A stretch of 64,000 nucleotides of DNA from Escherichia coli (GCF_003018115.1 NZ_CP027457.1), one strand, 5' to 3'. Counted from the stretch's first letter, positions 43,249-61,284 are shown. Translations and numbers: made by a program. The notes: generated from the letters alone by a model not told the origin.

Positions 43249-45390
43249 TCAAAATTGCCGCATATCCGGCATTCCGGGGGGTAAATCTTTCGGCACAGGC
43301 GCATCCGGTACAGGTTGTGTGGCACCACAGTTCCAGTTAATCACCGGCGCATCACCGTTCACATCCGACTCCCCTTCCAGATGAATGTGCGTACCATTAA
43401 GAAATATGCTTCCGTCCTTCGTCAGCACCAGCCTTGCCTTACCACAGCAGAGTTCAAGATGCTCACCGGCAGAATAAACTGCTGTTTGTCCGGTGTTTTC
43501 CTTCATCGTCTTGCCCACCGAGAAGGTGACGTTATTCCCTACATTGACGCTGTAGCCCATTCCCACCATCAGTGATTTATGCAGCCCTACCTGTGAGGAC
43601 TGCAACAACGCCACCGAGGTATTCATAATGCCGCCTACCGTCGTCTGATACGCCACACCCACCGTCAGCGCACGAATGATCCCCACCTTTTCAACCTGGT
43701 TTGATCCCACTTTGATAATCTGGTTACTGCCCACCGTTTCCACCTGGTTGACACCAACCGTCTGTATCTGATTAACGCCAATGTTCTGGATCTGGTTATT
43801 GGTAACGGTGATCGCCTGGTTGTTACCTATTTTTTCGGCATGGTTGTTTATCACATCAGTGGTGCGGTTATTCAGCACCTCGGTGTTCATGTTCTTCTGC
43901 GCGTGGATGTAGACCTGTTCTTTCCCTGTCGCATCGTCAAACTTCAGTTCATTAAACCCGCTGCCCTTATAGGTTTTCGAACGAATGGTCATCTGCGTCT
44001 TTGTTCCCGGCAGGCTGCCGGGTGTGCGGTTTTCCTGGTGGTAGGTGCGCCCCATAATGATCGGCTGGTCCGGATCGCCGTTGAGGAAGTCCACAATCAC
44101 CTCCTGACCCACACGCGGTATCGCCAGGTTACCAAACCCGGTGCCTGCCCACGCCTGTGCCACACGGATCCAGCATGAACTGTCCTGGTTTGACGGGTTA
44201 TAGCGGTCCCAGTTAAATTTCACCCGCACGCGACCATGTTCGTCGCAGAAGATTTCCTCGCCTGCCGGTCCCGTCACGACGGCGCTCTGCGGGCCATCCA
44301 CCAGCGGTTTCAGCAACGGCTGTGGTCGCCATGTTCTGTCTGCCGGTATTACCGCAAAATGGTTATCCAGCGTGGTGCCTGAACCCCTGCGTCCCGGTAC
44401 CGCCTGCGGCTGTTCGCCGTGAAGATCGCTCGCCACCACCTGCCATTCCCGGTTCAGGTTCGCCTGCGGATGCCCCGTCAGCACAATTCGCCGTCCCGGC
44501 CATATCTCCGGCGAACGGCTTGTTCCGCGCGCCACTTCTGCGTTGTTTCGCCAGCCATCCATCTGCCAGCGGGCAAAGTTCTGCCCGTGGGCACCCTTGA
44601 AACGTCCGGGGTAGTCATACACTTCATACTGTGTGCGCTGGTAATCCTGGTACTGGCCTTCCTGATCAAAACGCCCTGCCCAGCCGGGTCGTTTAAAGGT
44701 GTAGTCTTTGGTCACCACGGAAGAAGGGCGGATTTGTGCGCTGTAGCGAAACTGGCTGATGCAGAGGGTGCTTACCTCGGTACGGGTGTTCGGATTCCAG
44801 GGGATCTCAAAGGACTCCGGCAGATAACGCACGGTATCGCACAGGACCAGGCTCTGGTCGGTACTTTTTTGCGCGTGCTCCTCATAAAAGAAGATGCCTT
44901 CCTCCGCCGCCATCCGGCACAGGAAATCGTAATCAGTCTCACCGTACTGGACACAAAACTCACGGGAAGGATGCGGTTCACTGAACAGCGGACTCCACTC
45001 GGTCACCCCGTTTTCCTGCAATATCGTGCCGAGGATGCTTTTGATGTCCTCGTTCTGGAAGATACGGAAGTTCTGGCGCAGCCCTGTGCGCCACAGCGGC
45101 GGGCATACCTTCATGCTGTACAGCTTCTGGTTTTTGTCGTTCTCCCCCAGTTCAAACCAGGTCACCACACCTTTCACCCGGCGCTGTACGTCATCGCCCT
45201 GCCATATCGTCAGGTAGGCCATTTTGTCGAGGATCTGCTGGAATTCAAGGGAGAGAAACTGCTGGCTGACCAGAGAGAGAGCGAGGGAAAAAAGCGAAGA
45301 GAGTGACTGGTTCAGATGAAAGGAGACCACCGCAAAAGCATCCGGTGGCAGGCCGTCCACTTCCAGCGTGAAACGTAATCCGGTTGACAT
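43249..45390 (-). CDS. vgrG: Type VI secretion spike protein VgrG
   Basis: 713 aa; gp27/gp5-like VgrG; 75 bp upstream of rhs. Confidence 0.9.
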   Translation of the reverse strand: MSTGLRFTLEVDGLPPDAFAVVSFHLNQSLSSLFSLALSLVSQQFLSLEFQQILDKMAYLTIWQGDDVQRRVKGVVTWFELGENDKNQKLYSMKVCPPLWRTGLRQNFRIFQNEDIKSILGTILQENGVTEWSPLFSEPHPSREFCVQYGETDYDFLCRMAAEEGIFFYEEHAQKSTDQSLVLCDTVRYLPESFEIPWNPNTRTEVSTLCISQFRYSAQIRPSSVVTKDYTFKRPGWAGRFDQEGQYQDYQRTQYEVYDYPGRFKGAHGQNFARWQMDGWRNNAEVARGTSRSPEIWPGRRIVLTGHPQANLNREWQVVASDLHGEQPQAVPGRRGSGTTLDNHFAVIPADRTWRPQPLLKPLVDGPQSAVVTGPAGEEIFCDEHGRVRVKFNWDRYNPSNQDSSCWIRVAQAWAGTGFGNLAIPRVGQEVIVDFLNGDPDQPIIMGRTYHQENRTPGSLPGTKTQMTIRSKTYKGSGFNELKFDDATGKEQVYIHAQKNMNTEVLNNRTTDVINNHAEKIGNNQAITVTNNQIQNIGVNQIQTVGVNQVETVGSNQIIKVGSNQVEKVGIIRALTVGVAYQTTVGGIMNTSVALLQSSQVGLHKSLMVGMGYSVNVGNNVTFSVGKTMKENTGQTAVYSAGEHLELCCGKARLVLTKDGSIFLNGTHIHLEGESDVNGDAPVINWNCGATQPVPDAPVPKDLPPGMPDMRQF

Positions 45391-55585: not shown

Positions 55586-56347
55586 ATGGATGAGGGGTCA
55601 CTGTCTCTGCCACCATTTACCGGATACGACGAAAAAAGCCTGCGCGACTACCATCTCGCGCTTCGTGGCAACAGCCTGAATCCGATGATCGACGCGGCGA
55701 CGCCGCTACTCGGTATGGTAATGCGCCTTTCCACCATGAACAGCCAGACGATGCCGGAGCATCTTTTTGCTCAGGTGGTGACAGATGTTCAGGCCGTGGA
55801 GCAACTGCTTCAGGAACAGGGCTACGAACCGGGCGTGATTATCTCGTTTCGCTACATCCTCTGCACGTTTATTGATGAAGCGGCGCTCGGTAACGGCTGG
55901 TCGAACAAGAACGAGTGGATCAAGCAGTCATTGCTGGTCCATTTCCACAACGAAGCCTGGGGTGGCGAGAAAGTTTTCATCCTGCTGGAGCGCCTGATCC
56001 GTGAACCCAAACGTTACCAGGATCTGCTGGAATTTCTCTGGCTCTGTTTTTCTCTGGGATTTCGCGGGCGCTACAAAGTGGCAGTACAGGATCAGGGGGA
56101 ATTTGAGCAGATCTACCGCCGTCTGTACCACGTTCTGCATAAACTGCGCGGCGATGCCCCTTTCCCGCTGTTACACCAGGACAAAAAAACCCAGGGCGGG
56201 CGTTATCAGCTCATCAGTCGCCTGACTGTTAAACATATTTTTTGTGGTGGCGTTGTCGTGCTGGCGTTGTTTTACCTGTTCTATCTGTTGCGGCTGGACA
56301 GCCAGACGCAGGACATCCTGCACCAGCTAAACAAATTACTTCGATAA
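55586..56347 (+). CDS. tssL: T6SS membrane complex protein TssL (DotU)
   Basis: 253 aa with single C-terminal TM helix (GGVVVLALFYLFYLL). Confidence 0.85.
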   Translation: MDEGSLSLPPFTGYDEKSLRDYHLALRGNSLNPMIDAATPLLGMVMRLSTMNSQTMPEHLFAQVVTDVQAVEQLLQEQGYEPGVIISFRYILCTFIDEAALGNGWSNKNEWIKQSLLVHFHNEAWGGEKVFILLERLIREPKRYQDLLEFLWLCFSLGFRGRYKVAVQDQGEFEQIYRRLYHVLHKLRGDAPFPLLHQDKKTQGGRYQLISRLTVKHIFCGGVVVLALFYLFYLLRLDSQTQDILHQLNKLLR

Positions 56348-56355
56348 GGACGTTT

Positions 56356-59127
56356 ATGATCCAGATTGATCTTCCCACGCTGGTAAAACGGCTGAACCTG
56401 TTCTCCCGCCAGGCGCTGGAGATGGCCGCCTCTGAATGTATGAGTCAGCAGGCTGCGGAAATTACCGTCAGCCATGTGCTTATTCAGATGCTCGCCATGC
56501 CACGCAGTGACCTGCGGGTTATTACCCGCCAGGGCGATATTGGCATGGAAGAGTTGCGCCAGGCGTTGACGGTAGAGAACTACACAACCGCCCGTTCTGC
56601 GGACAGCTACCCGGCGTTTTCCCCGATGCTGGTTGAGTGGCTTAAAGAGGGCTGGCTGCTGGCGTCGGCTGAGATGCAGCACAGCGAACTGCGCGGCGGC
56701 GTGTTGCTGCTGGCCTTGCTGCATTCGCCGCTGCGTTATATACCGCCTGCTGCCGCCCGGCTGTTGACCGGCATTAACCGTGACCGTCTGCAACAGGACT
56801 TTGTGCAGTGGACACAGGAGTCGGCGGAATCAGTCGTGCCGGATGCAGACGGTAAAGGCGCAGGCACACTGACGGACGGCTCTGACACCCTGCTTGCCCG
56901 CTACGCCAAAAACATGACCGCAGACGCCCGTAACGGCAGGCTAGACCCGGTACTGTGCCGCGACCACGAAATCGACCTGATGATCGACATTCTCTGCCGC
57001 CGCCGTAAAAACAACCCGGTGGTGGTGGGCGAAGCAGGCGTGGGTAAAAGCGCGCTGATTGAAGGGCTGGCGCTGCGCATCGTGGCAGGCCAGGTGCCGG
57101 ACAAACTGAAAAACACCGATATCATGACCCTTGACCTGGGCGCATTGCAGGCCGGGGCATCGGTGAAGGGTGAGTTTGAAAAACGCTTCAAGGGGCTGAT
57201 GGCGGAGGTCATTTCCTCTCCGGTGCCGGTCATTCTGTTTATCGACGAAGCGCATACCCTGATTGGCGCGGGCAACCAGCAGGGCGGGCTGGATATCTCC
57301 AACCTGCTGAAACCGGCGCTGGCGCGTGGCGAACTGAAAACCATCGCCGCCACCACCTGGAGCGAGTACAAAAAATACTTCGAGAAAGACGCCGCCCTGT
57401 CGCGCCGCTTCCAGTTAGTGAAGGTCAGCGAACCCAACGCTGCCGAAGCCACCATTATTCTGCGTGGTCTGTCGGCGGTCTATGAACGGTCTCACGGCGT
57501 GCTGATTGACGATGATGCCTTGCAGGCCGCAGCAACGCTGAGCGAACGTTATCTCTCCGGGCGTCAGTTACCGGACAAAGCGATTGATGTGCTGGATACC
57601 GCCTGCGCCCGTGTGGCCATCAACCTGTCGTCGCCGCCGAAGCAAATCTCGGCGCTGACCACTCTGAGCCACCAGCAGGAGGCGGAAATTCGCCAGCTTG
57701 AGCGCGAGCTTCGCATCGGACTGCGTACCGACACATCACGGATGACCGAGGTGCTGGTGCAGTATGATGAAACGCTGACGGCGCTGGATGAACTGGAAGC
57801 GGCCTGGCACCAGCAGCAGACGCTGGTCCGGGAGATTATCGCGCTGCGCCAGCAGTTACTGGGCGTGGCAGAGGACGATGCGGCGCCGTTGCCGGACGCA
57901 GATACCGTGGAGGATACGCAGCCAGAGTCAGAGTCAGAGTCAGAACAGGATAATACCGGTGCCGTACCGGCTGATGAGGCCGACAGAGAACAGCCGGAAG
58001 AGACCGCTGAAACAGTTTCCCCGGTACAGCGGCTGGCCCAGCTCACTGCCGAACTGGACGCCCTGCATAACGACCGGTTGCTGGTCTCCCCGCACGTCGA
58101 TAAAAAACAGATTGCGGCGGTGATTGCCGAATGGACCGGCGTGCCGCTCAACCGCCTGTCGCAGAATGAAATGTCGGTCATCACCGACCTGCCGAAATGG
58201 CTGGGCGACACCATCAAAGGCCAGGACCTGGCGATTGCCAGCCTGCATAAGTATCTACTGACCGCACGCGCCGACCTGCGTCGTCCGGGACGCCCGCTCG
58301 GTGCGTTCCTGCTGGCTGGCCCCAGCGGTGTGGGTAAAACCGAAACCGTCCTGCAACTGGCAGAGCTGCTCTACGGCGGTCGCCAGTACCTGACCACCAT
58401 CAATATGTCCGAATTCCAGGAGAAACACACCGTCTCGCGGCTGATTGGTTCGCCTCCGGGCTACGTTGGCTACGGTGAAGGCGGCGTACTGACCGAAGCG
58501 ATTCGCCAGAAACCCTACTCGGTAGTACTGCTCGATGAAGTGGAAAAAGCGCACCCGGATGTGCTCAACCTGTTCTACCAGGCGTTCGATAAGGGCGAAA
58601 TGGCAGACGGTGAAGGCCGCCTGATTGACTGCAAAAATATCGTCTTCTTCCTGACGTCCAACCTCGGCTACCAGGTAATAGTCGAGCATGCCGATGACCC
58701 GGAAACCATGCAGGAAGTACTGTATCCGGTGCTGGCCGACTTCTTCAAACCTGCCCTGCTGGCGCGTATGGAAGTGGTGCCGTATCTGCCGCTGTCGAAA
58801 GAGACGCTCGCCACCATTATCGCCGGGAAACTGGCCCGTCTGGATAACGTGCTGCGCAGTCGCTTTGGTGCAGAAGTGGCCATTGAACCGGAAGTGACGG
58901 ACGAAATCATGAGCCGCGTCACCCGCGCGGAAAACGGCGCGAGGATGCTGGAATCGGTCATCGATGGCGACATGCTACCGCCGCTCTCGCTGCAGCTGTT
59001 GCAGAAAATGGCGGCTAACACGGCGATTGCCCGGATTCGGTTGTCGGCAGTGGACGGCGCATTTACGGCAGACGTGGAAGATGCTCAGAACGACGAGTCC
59101 GTCACAAAGGATGAAACGGTTTTATGA
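56356..59127 (+). CDS. clpV: T6SS AAA+ ATPase ClpV (TssH)
   Basis: Two AAA modules: Walker A GEAGVGKSA and GPSGVGKTE; start set at MIQIDLPTLVKRLN (in-frame internal ATG of ORF 56242). Confidence 0.9.
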   Translation: MIQIDLPTLVKRLNLFSRQALEMAASECMSQQAAEITVSHVLIQMLAMPRSDLRVITRQGDIGMEELRQALTVENYTTARSADSYPAFSPMLVEWLKEGWLLASAEMQHSELRGGVLLLALLHSPLRYIPPAAARLLTGINRDRLQQDFVQWTQESAESVVPDADGKGAGTLTDGSDTLLARYAKNMTADARNGRLDPVLCRDHEIDLMIDILCRRRKNNPVVVGEAGVGKSALIEGLALRIVAGQVPDKLKNTDIMTLDLGALQAGASVKGEFEKRFKGLMAEVISSPVPVILFIDEAHTLIGAGNQQGGLDISNLLKPALARGELKTIAATTWSEYKKYFEKDAALSRRFQLVKVSEPNAAEATIILRGLSAVYERSHGVLIDDDALQAAATLSERYLSGRQLPDKAIDVLDTACARVAINLSSPPKQISALTTLSHQQEAEIRQLERELRIGLRTDTSRMTEVLVQYDETLTALDELEAAWHQQQTLVREIIALRQQLLGVAEDDAAPLPDADTVEDTQPESESESEQDNTGAVPADEADREQPEETAETVSPVQRLAQLTAELDALHNDRLLVSPHVDKKQIAAVIAEWTGVPLNRLSQNEMSVITDLPKWLGDTIKGQDLAIASLHKYLLTARADLRRPGRPLGAFLLAGPSGVGKTETVLQLAELLYGGRQYLTTINMSEFQEKHTVSRLIGSPPGYVGYGEGGVLTEAIRQKPYSVVLLDEVEKAHPDVLNLFYQAFDKGEMADGEGRLIDCKNIVFFLTSNLGYQVIVEHADDPETMQEVLYPVLADFFKPALLARMEVVPYLPLSKETLATIIAGKLARLDNVLRSRFGAEVAIEPEVTDEIMSRVTRAENGARMLESVIDGDMLPPLSLQLLQKMAANTAIARIRLSAVDGAFTADVEDAQNDESVTKDETVL

Positions 59128-59871: not shown

Positions 59872-61284
59872 ATGGCAATGGACTTACGCGATCCGAATGT
59901 CTGGATATCGCACCTGCTGGAAAACCTGCCAGAAGAAAAACTGGCATCGGCGCTGAAAGATGACAACCCGAACTGGGAGTATATCGACGGCGAAATCGTC
60001 AAACTGGGATCTCTGGCCCACAGTCAACTGGATATCCCGGAACTCCAGCGCCGGGGGCTGGTCATTCTGGCTTCGGAGAGTAAGGACTTTCGTCTGCTGG
60101 CGCATCTGCTGAGAACCCTGCAACACGCCGGTGATCCTCATCTCGCATTGCGCCTGCTGGCGCTGTATGTGGAGCATTACTGGTCGGTGGCTGCGCCGCA
60201 GAATATGGCACATAAAAAACGCTTTGCCAGCCAGGTCATTAAACGCTTTGAAACAGGTATTGAAGGCTTTTCACAGAACGCCGCCACAGCGCAGCGCGAC
60301 GCGCTGTCAGGGGAACTGGCGAAACTGGCGCAGTGCTGGCAGTCACATAACGCCCCGGAACTGGCACTGGCTACCGATGATCTTTTTGCCCTGTACCAGC
60401 GTGCGTTTAATCGTGCGGCACCGGCTCCTGCCCCCACTCCGGCGGCCTCCGATAGTTCACCACAGACCACCGCCACGTCTGAAAGCGGCGTGACGCAACC
60501 CAGTGCTCCGACTCCCCAAATCGCCATCGACAGTCACGACGACAAAGCCTGGCGCGACACGCTGTTAAAAGTGGCGGCTATTTTATGTGAACGCCAGCCG
60601 GACTCGCCGCAGGGCTATCGCCTGCGCCGCCATGCCCTGTGGCAATCCATCACCAGTACACCCCAGGCGGAAAGCGATGGACGTACCCCATTGGCTGCGG
60701 TCTCTGCCGATATGGTGGCGGATTACCAGTCCCGGCTTGCCAGCGCGGATATGGCGCTGTGGCAGCAGGTTGAGAAAAGCGTATTGCTGGCTCCTTACTG
60801 GCTGGACGGTCACTGTCTTTCTGCACAGACGGCACTGCGTCTGGGTTACAAACAGGTGGCAGACACCATCCGCGATGAGGTCATCCGCTTCCTTGAGCGT
60901 CTGCCCCAGCTTACCGGGCTGCTGTTTAATGACCGCACACCGTTTCTCAGTGAGCAGACGAAACAATGGCTGGCTGCTTCGCCCGACGGCAAAGTTGCAC
61001 CGGTTGCGCAAATCGGTGAGGAATCGCAGGCAGCCAGAGCCTGTTTTGCTGGGCAGGGTCTGGAGGCGGCGCTGCGATATCTGGACATGCTACCCGAAGG
61101 CGATCCCCGCGATCAGTTTCACCGCCAGTACCTTGCCGCACAGTTGACGGAGGAGGCGGGGCTGATACAGCTTGCGCAGCAACAGTACCGGATGTTGTTG
61201 ATGATAGGGAGTCAGATGATGGTGTCTGACTGGGAGCCATCATTACTTACGCAGCTTGAACAAAAATTCACGGCAGAACAATAA
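59872..61284 (+). CDS. tssA: T6SS protein TssA (ImpA N-terminal domain)
   Basis: Start MAMDLRDPNVWISHLLENLPEEKLASAL with GGGAG RBS; ~470 aa. Confidence 0.8.
   Translation: MAMDLRDPNVWISHLLENLPEEKLASALKDDNPNWEYIDGEIVKLGSLAHSQLDIPELQRRGLVILASESKDFRLLAHLLRTLQHAGDPHLALRLLALYVEHYWSVAAPQNMAHKKRFASQVIKRFETGIEGFSQNAATAQRDALSGELAKLAQCWQSHNAPELALATDDLFALYQRAFNRAAPAPAPTPAASDSSPQTTATSESGVTQPSAPTPQIAIDSHDDKAWRDTLLKVAAILCERQPDSPQGYRLRRHALWQSITSTPQAESDGRTPLAAVSADMVADYQSRLASADMALWQQVEKSVLLAPYWLDGHCLSAQTALRLGYKQVADTIRDEVIRFLERLPQLTGLLFNDRTPFLSEQTKQWLAASPDGKVAPVAQIGEESQAARACFAGQGLEAALRYLDMLPEGDPRDQFHRQYLAAQLTEEAGLIQLAQQQYRMLLMIGSQMMVSDWEPSLLTQLEQKFTAEQ

Follow-up and report, generated by a model that had tools for sequence, protein, structure and literature searches.

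The CAGAGT array in tssH (clpV), the gene for the AAA+ ATPase of an Escherichia coli T6SS, is a coding microsatellite (VNTR) that is very probably neutral or nearly neutral, made by replication slippage and accommodated in a permissive loop of the protein. The length-variable repeat itself is not new, as it is already known and in routine strain-typing use as an MLVA marker that we take to be CVN016, whose place in the tssH gene we describe below.

The window, by which we mean the whole 64-kb stretch of DNA that was analysed, contains the array as three CAGAGT units at 57923-57940 followed by CAGA up to 57944, as read directly from the sequence (Table 1). The first-pass annotation had described an in-frame CAGAGT x3 repeat, and this stands; the end that it gave, 57943, falls one base before the end reported by TRF, a difference that is immaterial. 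The codons CCA GAG TCA GAG TCA GAG TCA GAA CAG give P523-ESESESE-Q531, and the array thus encodes (Glu-Ser)3 + Glu, the variable part of the locus. With the frame read from the codons, the ES units are residues E524-S529 of TssH and lie inside a 50-residue acidic stretch, in agreement with the ESESES originally proposed, and the peptide that had been given with it, DDAAPLPDADTVEDTQPESESESEQDNTGAVPADEADREQPEE, is found exactly in the TssH translation. This array is the only perfect hexamer repeated three times in the 64-kb window, and when the window was simulated 300 times under a first-order Markov model, such arrays occurred 0.01 times on average, a count so low that the array is not a chance feature.

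Table 1. Coordinates of the array, its gene, the encoded domain features and the MLVA primer sites in the window
Feature	Position	Strand	Basis
Perfect (CAGAGT)x3.7 array	57923-57944	+	TRF: period 6, 3.7 copies, 100% matches
tssH/clpV CDS, 923 aa + stop, T6SS AAA+ ATPase	56356-59127	+	TIGR03345; ClpB/3zri alignments; RefSeq orthologues = tssH
Middle (M) domain coiled coil, residues ~429-571, inserted in first AAA+ module	57640-58068	+	AF2; ClpB alignment
Acidic low-complexity loop, residues 503-555, 53 residues	57862-58020	+	AF2 model
MLVA primer site CGCCGCCGAAGCAAATCTC	57632-57650	+	0 mismatches; primer from PMC8143711, PMC8261245
Partner MLVA primer site GCAATCACCGCCGCAATCTGTT	58106-58127	-	0 mismatches

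The repeat-bearing gene had been named clpV from the sequence, and both the protein and its surroundings uphold that name. TssH scores 1124.5 bits against the equivalog model TIGR03345, for which the cutoff is 884.95, and scores below the respective cutoffs of the ClpB, ClpA, ClpK and ClpG models. Residues 2-159 match the solved N-domain of Vibrio cholerae ClpV (3zri/3zrj, E = 2.5e-33), and the Walker A residues G228, G230 and K231, as well as G658, G660 and K661, are invariant in an alignment of 118 ClpV sequences. Both AAA+ modules are recovered by phmmer against E. coli ClpB, TssH 179-487 matching ClpB 160-465 and TssH 574-888 matching ClpB 525-840. The automatic ORF call begins at a TTG codon at 56242, overlapping the upstream gene, and the ATG at 56356, which gives 923 aa, is likely to be the true start. 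The neighbours of tssH in the window are TssJ, TssK, TssL/DotU, VasI and TssA, all scoring over their model cutoffs; tssA is intact, and the reading frame of tssM stays open as far as the window end. The same gene order occurs in the annotated strain 107, where the cluster adjoins tRNA-Asp (aspV) and dnaQ. The window is E. coli DNA, and the repeat is part of the E. coli T6SS island next to aspV. Out of the 5,426 complete genomes of E. coli, 2,736, about half, have the region.

With 500 nt surrounding the repeat as the query, the matched spans in complete E. coli genomes vary by 6-nt steps. The arrays of 25 tssH alleles that span the repeat were then fetched and read directly, yielding 1, 2, 3, 4, 5, 6, 8, 11, 12, 15, 17, 32 and 34 pure units; overall, copy numbers of 1, 2, 3, 4, 5, 6, 8, 10-18, 27 and 32-34 occur in the complete genomes. 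The first-pass annotation had suggested a possible linker of variable length that would gain or lose ES units without a frameshift. This suggestion is borne out, since the repeat number is not invariant across the clpV alleles of different strains but extends from 1 to at least 34 units among complete E. coli genomes, and all unit-number variants are in frame, the remainder of the linker being nearly constant in the fetched alleles. For the distribution we sampled 85 rows, evenly spaced along two rankings and representing 84 distinct genomes (a systematic and not a random sample), with row counts read from the spans and corrected by the directly read alleles. Divergent alleles without an array account for 5 of the 85 rows; a single unit is seen in about 20 rows and 2 units in about 25, while 6 rows have 3, 3 have 4, 3 have 5, 2 have 6, 4 have 8, 13 have 10-18 and 4 have 27-34 units, which places 35 of the 85 rows in the range of 3-34 units. 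The distribution shows a strong skew towards 1-2 units and a long tail, which could stem from biased mutation or from selection that disfavours long tracts.

A single unit (PESEQ), within a 46-residue linker, is found in E. albertii and in many E. coli alleles, so that the array represents a single pre-existing ES codon pair that was expanded in some E. coli lineages. A search for the exact pattern of two units plus the right flank in one genome per species (GTDB) returned two unrelated MAG matches only and thus, at this stringency, gave no sign of the array beyond E. coli, a weak negative result. Where long arrays are interrupted, it is by CAGAAT units alone, which change GAG to GAA synonymously. 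Two spans, of 579 and 495 bp, were not multiples of 6, and we rejected them as unit-number frameshift alleles: one reflects a 1-bp deletion within a unit and the other an assembly with scattered indels. In strain 2014C-3050 one unit measures 5 bp, owing to a 1-bp deletion inside it, and the gene is annotated as frameshifted, whereas the UTME-7 assembly carries scattered 1-bp indels. That some records are faulty at this very place, as in UTME-7 and 2014C-3050, could be taken as a sign that errors of assembly or sequencing in public genomes have produced the apparent variation. We regard this as hardly credible, however: the arrays measure 12-204 bp and are well under read length, clean multiples of 6 are seen in genomes from many independent studies, and PCR followed by capillary or Sanger typing independently shows the same polymorphism.

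The flanks of the arrays bear on how the length differences arose. Four O157:H7 strains, ECP19-198, NE122, SS NE 1040-1 and Z869, carry 3, 2, 5 and 4 units, respectively, with 0 differences across 2,478 flanking nt. Likewise, the 150-nt flanks are identical among 15-, 32- and 34-unit alleles, between 6- and 17-unit alleles, and between 11- and about-17-unit alleles. Length differences are exact 6-bp multiples within the perfect tract. Because copy number differs on identical flanks, replication slippage rather than allele exchange appears to be the main source of the differences, the mechanism being one to which the compared sequences point rather than one that was observed. The competing source would be recombination, or the horizontal exchange of complete tssH alleles or T6SS islands. 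The region is indeed mosaic, with even the closest complete genomes reaching at most 99.2-99.6% identity to the window, and there are several distinct flanking haplotypes. Yet changes in copy number recur on identical as well as on different haplotypes, and the four O157:H7 strains, the 15-, 32- and 34-unit alleles and the restriction of all differences to exact 6-bp multiples inside the perfect tract largely refute exchange as the main source, which we consider very unlikely. Descent does contribute to the pattern: the very long alleles cluster on few flanking haplotypes, so that part of the copy-number distribution reflects descent and not independent events. Under the slippage explanation that we favour, the perfect 6-bp tract would misalign during replication (slipped-strand mispairing) and gain or lose whole units; since a unit is two codons, each such change would add or remove one Glu-Ser pair and keep the frame.

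The variable tract coincides with a marker that is in use for typing. PMC8143711 lists the primer pairs of the generic E. coli MLVA; when all of them were tested on the window, one pair matched exactly, on either side of the repeat (Table 1). Its in silico amplicon, 57632-58127, measures 496 bp, or 478 + 3x6. Among the fetched alleles, all 13 that have at least two units and were tested show 0 mismatches to the primers, and the in silico product is 478+6n bp for each array-bearing fetched allele, with products of 484, 490, 496, 502, 508, 514, 526, 544, 550, 568, 580 and 670 bp matching 1, 2, 3, 4, 5, 6, 8, 11, 12, 15, 17 and 32 units, in that order. The published size rule for CVN016 is the same, the number of repeats being given as (product - 478)/6 (PMC8143711). 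CVN016 belongs to GECM-10, the 10-locus generic E. coli MLVA of Lobersli, Haugum & Lindstedt (2012), as described in PMC3877011, PMC5217547 and PMC8143711. A 475-bp zero-repeat CVN016 product has been reported in ST131 isolates (PMC3877011); UTI89 and a second strain give a repeat-less 481-bp product, and UTI89-type alleles, at ~475-481 bp, are consistent with that report.

The name of the locus required some care, as the primer tables list the pair GCAATCACCGCCGCAATCTGTT/CGCCGCCGAAGCAAATCTC as "CVN017" (PMC8143711, PMC8261245). We rejected this label at face value, since (496-202)/6 = 49 is impossible for an allele of 3 units, whereas (496-478)/6 = 3. The pair printed as "CVN016" amplifies the clpA-tRNA-Ser-infA spacer, which contains CRISPR repeats with a 60-bp period, giving products of 279 and 339 bp; this pair is the CRISPR locus CCR001. 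It follows that, relative to the primers, the names are one row out of step; in both tables (PMC8143711, PMC8261245) this shift appears to affect CVN016, CVN017 and CCR001. Given also the 478-bp offset, we infer that the tssH repeat is CVN016, the basis for the name being the size rule of the amplicon together with secondary papers. An earlier candidate, CVN014, which varies most among the generic loci, was rejected, its primers being without a match in the window.

CVN016 and the locus in the window share the primers, the 6-bp unit, the size rule, the null alleles and the high polymorphism, and we found no sequence-level difference between them, the window simply holding a 3-unit allele. In the typing literature, CVN016 has 1-15 repeats and a Nei index of 0.70 in non-O157 STEC, a DN of 0.70 in O26:H11, and alleles of up to 47 repeats in ST405 and of 10-20 in ST38; it is ranked among the most diverse MLVA loci and gives null alleles in many strains. 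Whereas it figures in that literature as an anonymous marker, with ClpV unmentioned, it is placed here in tssH/clpV. In the open-access literature on ClpV together with MLVA, tandem repeats or VNTR, we found no paper that ties an E. coli marker to ClpV, and a search for CAGAGT as an E. coli VNTR retrieved unrelated primers only, such as those of an Enterobacter hormaechei scheme. The position of CVN016 in a T6SS island explains its null alleles, which would come from strains that lack the island or have divergent primer sites.

The place of the tract within ClpV was examined with an AlphaFold2 model built from 118 diverse ClpV sequences (mean pLDDT 91.3, pTM 0.80). The helices of the middle domain are modelled at residues 429-453 and 460-502, with a return helix at 556-571, and the acidic loop separates the second of these from the return helix. 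The ten-residue pLDDT means over residues 501-560 are 79, 61, 46, 43, 48 and 88; the model, confident elsewhere, is least so at residues 520-547, where the values fall below 50, and DSSP assigns nothing across 503-555 except a three-residue helical turn at 515-517. The ES tract, 524-529, sits near the centre of this loop. Residues 507-556 comprise 18 D/E and 1 K/R, and the earlier description of the repeat as lying in an acidic, low-complexity segment is thereby confirmed, the segment being a non-helical, low-confidence loop in the model. The model suggests that the acidic loop holding the repeat is probably disordered. In 117 diverse ClpV representatives (36-64% identity), the corresponding segment measures 20-90 residues, with a median of 38; it is low-complexity and unalignable, and in most representatives the alignment to the query stops before the segment and resumes after it. 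The E. coli TssH segment is near the long end of this range even with three units. The loop is thus generally a permissive, hypervariable site across the ClpV family. A search of the literature on the ClpV middle domain found nothing specific to this loop.

The tract lies in a long, acidic, probably disordered loop of the middle domain, a position that tolerates widely differing lengths across the ClpV family, so that in the favoured explanation most changes in length probably have little or no selective effect. Near-neutral changes would then pile up as polymorphism, and the accumulated length polymorphism is what would let the locus work as the typing marker CVN016. The same position, in an acidic loop of low model confidence, explains the tolerance of huge expansions. 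From these considerations we infer the neutrality of the length changes.

The homology of the middle domain to that of ClpB invites a different reading. Within the first AAA+ module, ClpV carries its coiled-coil insertion where ClpB/Hsp104 has the middle domain, and TssH 488-573, which phmmer leaves unaligned, stands in place of ClpB 466-524, the region of motif 2 in the coiled-coil middle domain of ClpB. Motif 2 of ClpB controls its activity and the docking of Hsp70; we know of no evidence that ClpV works with DnaK. In TssH, the AF2 model has the loop 503-555 and one return helix rather than a complete motif 2 (end of helix 2, helices 3 and 4); the 53-residue acidic loop of ClpV connects the long helix with the return helix, and ClpB is ~27 residues shorter there. 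By analogy, since the homologous region of ClpB regulates ATPase activity, an effect of loop length on ClpV is conceivable. The number of Glu-Ser pairs could then act as an adaptive tuning knob, altering the length or charge of the loop at the tip of the middle domain and thereby ATPase autoinhibition, hexamer packing or disassembly of the TssB/TssC sheath, with copy number under selection and the repeat allowing T6SS dynamics to be adjusted quickly and reversibly. Besides the position of the loop in the place of ClpB 466-524, the unusually broad range of copy numbers (1-34 units here, up to 47 reported) and the purity of the arrays, with synonymous interruptions, speak for such a role, but purity and synonymous interruptions are equally produced by slippage alone. 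The segment is unalignable in the ClpV family and spans 20-90 residues, as expected for an unconstrained loop, and half of the sampled genomes have 1-2 units only. Moreover, the T6SS is already broken in some carriers, tssA and tssM both being frameshifted in strain 107, and in strain Z1323CEC0019 an IS1203 is inserted inside the array. We therefore consider an adaptive role of this kind unlikely. A more specific proposal, in which slippage, through the length and negative charge of the loop, adjusts the activity of ClpV or its engagement of the contracted sheath and lets E. coli lineages quickly retune T6SS firing and recycling, so that the 27-47-unit alleles would be selected states and not products of drift, seems to us improbable as well.

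Short perfect repeats with a unit that is a multiple of 3, located in ORFs, changed by slippage and tolerated by the protein also serve as typing VNTRs in other enterobacteria. Examples of such in-frame hexanucleotide VNTRs, in other genes, are the STTR loci of Salmonella and the MLVA loci specific to O157. Phase-variable contingency loci resemble the tssH array in undergoing slipped-strand mispairing in a perfect short repeat; they switch genes on and off, however, whereas the 6-bp unit of tssH, located inside an ORF, preserves the reading frame when its number changes. Contingency loci act through a frame shift or a change in promoter spacing, and the unit-number variants seen here were all in frame; the sole frameshifted allele that we saw results from a 1-bp deletion within a unit and not from a change in unit number. 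Since a gain or loss of units cannot silence the gene, the tssH array is not a contingency locus.

The repeat is thus a real and fast-evolving coding microsatellite, yet already a typing marker, and its importance as a finding is small. What our analysis adds is a place for CVN016, in the acidic loop of the ClpV middle domain within the aspV-linked T6SS, together with a caution that the shifted names in the primer tables (PMC8143711, PMC8261245) could mislead users of MLVA. Should copy number affect ClpV function, the alleles that circulate in E. coli would constitute a natural allelic series for the poorly understood middle domain of ClpV.

Among the typing loci of generic E. coli MLVA, the pair labelled CVN017 in PMC8143711 and PMC8261245 lands on the tssH repeat (window 57632-57650 and 58106-58127), with an offset of 478 bp, and is most likely CVN016, whose product size is 478+6n bp. 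The pair labelled CVN016 in the same two papers lands on a CRISPR array between clpA and infA, with a 60-bp period and products of 279/339 bp (L028-L030), and is CCR001. In the tables of both papers, the locus names seem to be displaced by one row relative to the primers.

Our scan of one genome per bacterial species for a 22-nt pattern, composed of two CAGAGT units and the right flank, also returned one match in a Synergistaceae bin (L022 7179-7200) and one in a Bacillota metagenome bin (L023 2361-2382), both presumably due to chance.

The start of tssH is likely the ATG at 56356 rather than the mechanically called TTG (see the table), in agreement with the 2,772-nt coding sequence of RefSeq orthologues. 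Downstream, tssA and tssM (intact and open, respectively, in the window; see the table) are annotated as frameshifted pseudogenes in the cattle strain 107 (L009 22173-27155), a close relative of the O157:H7 alleles.

Features around tssH and its repeat
Feature	Window position	Remark
Degenerate tandem repeat, 24 bp x3	43677-43749	upstream of the tssH array; 65% matches, TRF score 60
tssL	55586-56347	
Mechanical ORF start, TTG	56242	overlaps the tssL end
tssA	59872-61284	intact
tssM	about 61291 to window end	open throughout

In E. coli MS 21-1, one spacer (32 nt, L031 601-632) of a type I-E CRISPR array is 100% identical to a segment of tssH (window 57769-57800); the strain has no further match to this tssH region. 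The BLAST match extends to 34 nt because the two bases that follow the spacer coincide with the CRISPR repeat. In the canonical repeat orientation, the triplet flanking the target is GCC, not the usual AAG/ATG motif.

In strain Z1323CEC0019 (L018 2792-4170), an IS1203 element, of the IS3 family, has inserted into the run of CAGAGT units, leaving 8 on its upstream side and 4 on its downstream side, and splits tssH into two pseudogene fragments. In strain 2014C-3050 (L019 392-492), tssH is annotated as frameshifted because one unit of the 17-unit array reads CAGGT, a 1-bp deletion that may be genuine or a sequencing error. The frameshift annotated in strain UTME-7 (L020) results from several 1-bp insertions scattered over 700 nt of tssH, a pattern typical of uncorrected long-read errors, in an assembly designated "complete".

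Intact alleles of 15, 16, 18, and 27 to 34 units (H15, H16, H46, H59, H66, and H70-H72 among the matches in complete E. coli genomes) are named "AAA family ATPase" in RefSeq, not TssH, and one 17-unit allele (H20) retains the tssH name. Expansion of the repeat appears to take the TssH protein beyond the RefSeq naming rule.
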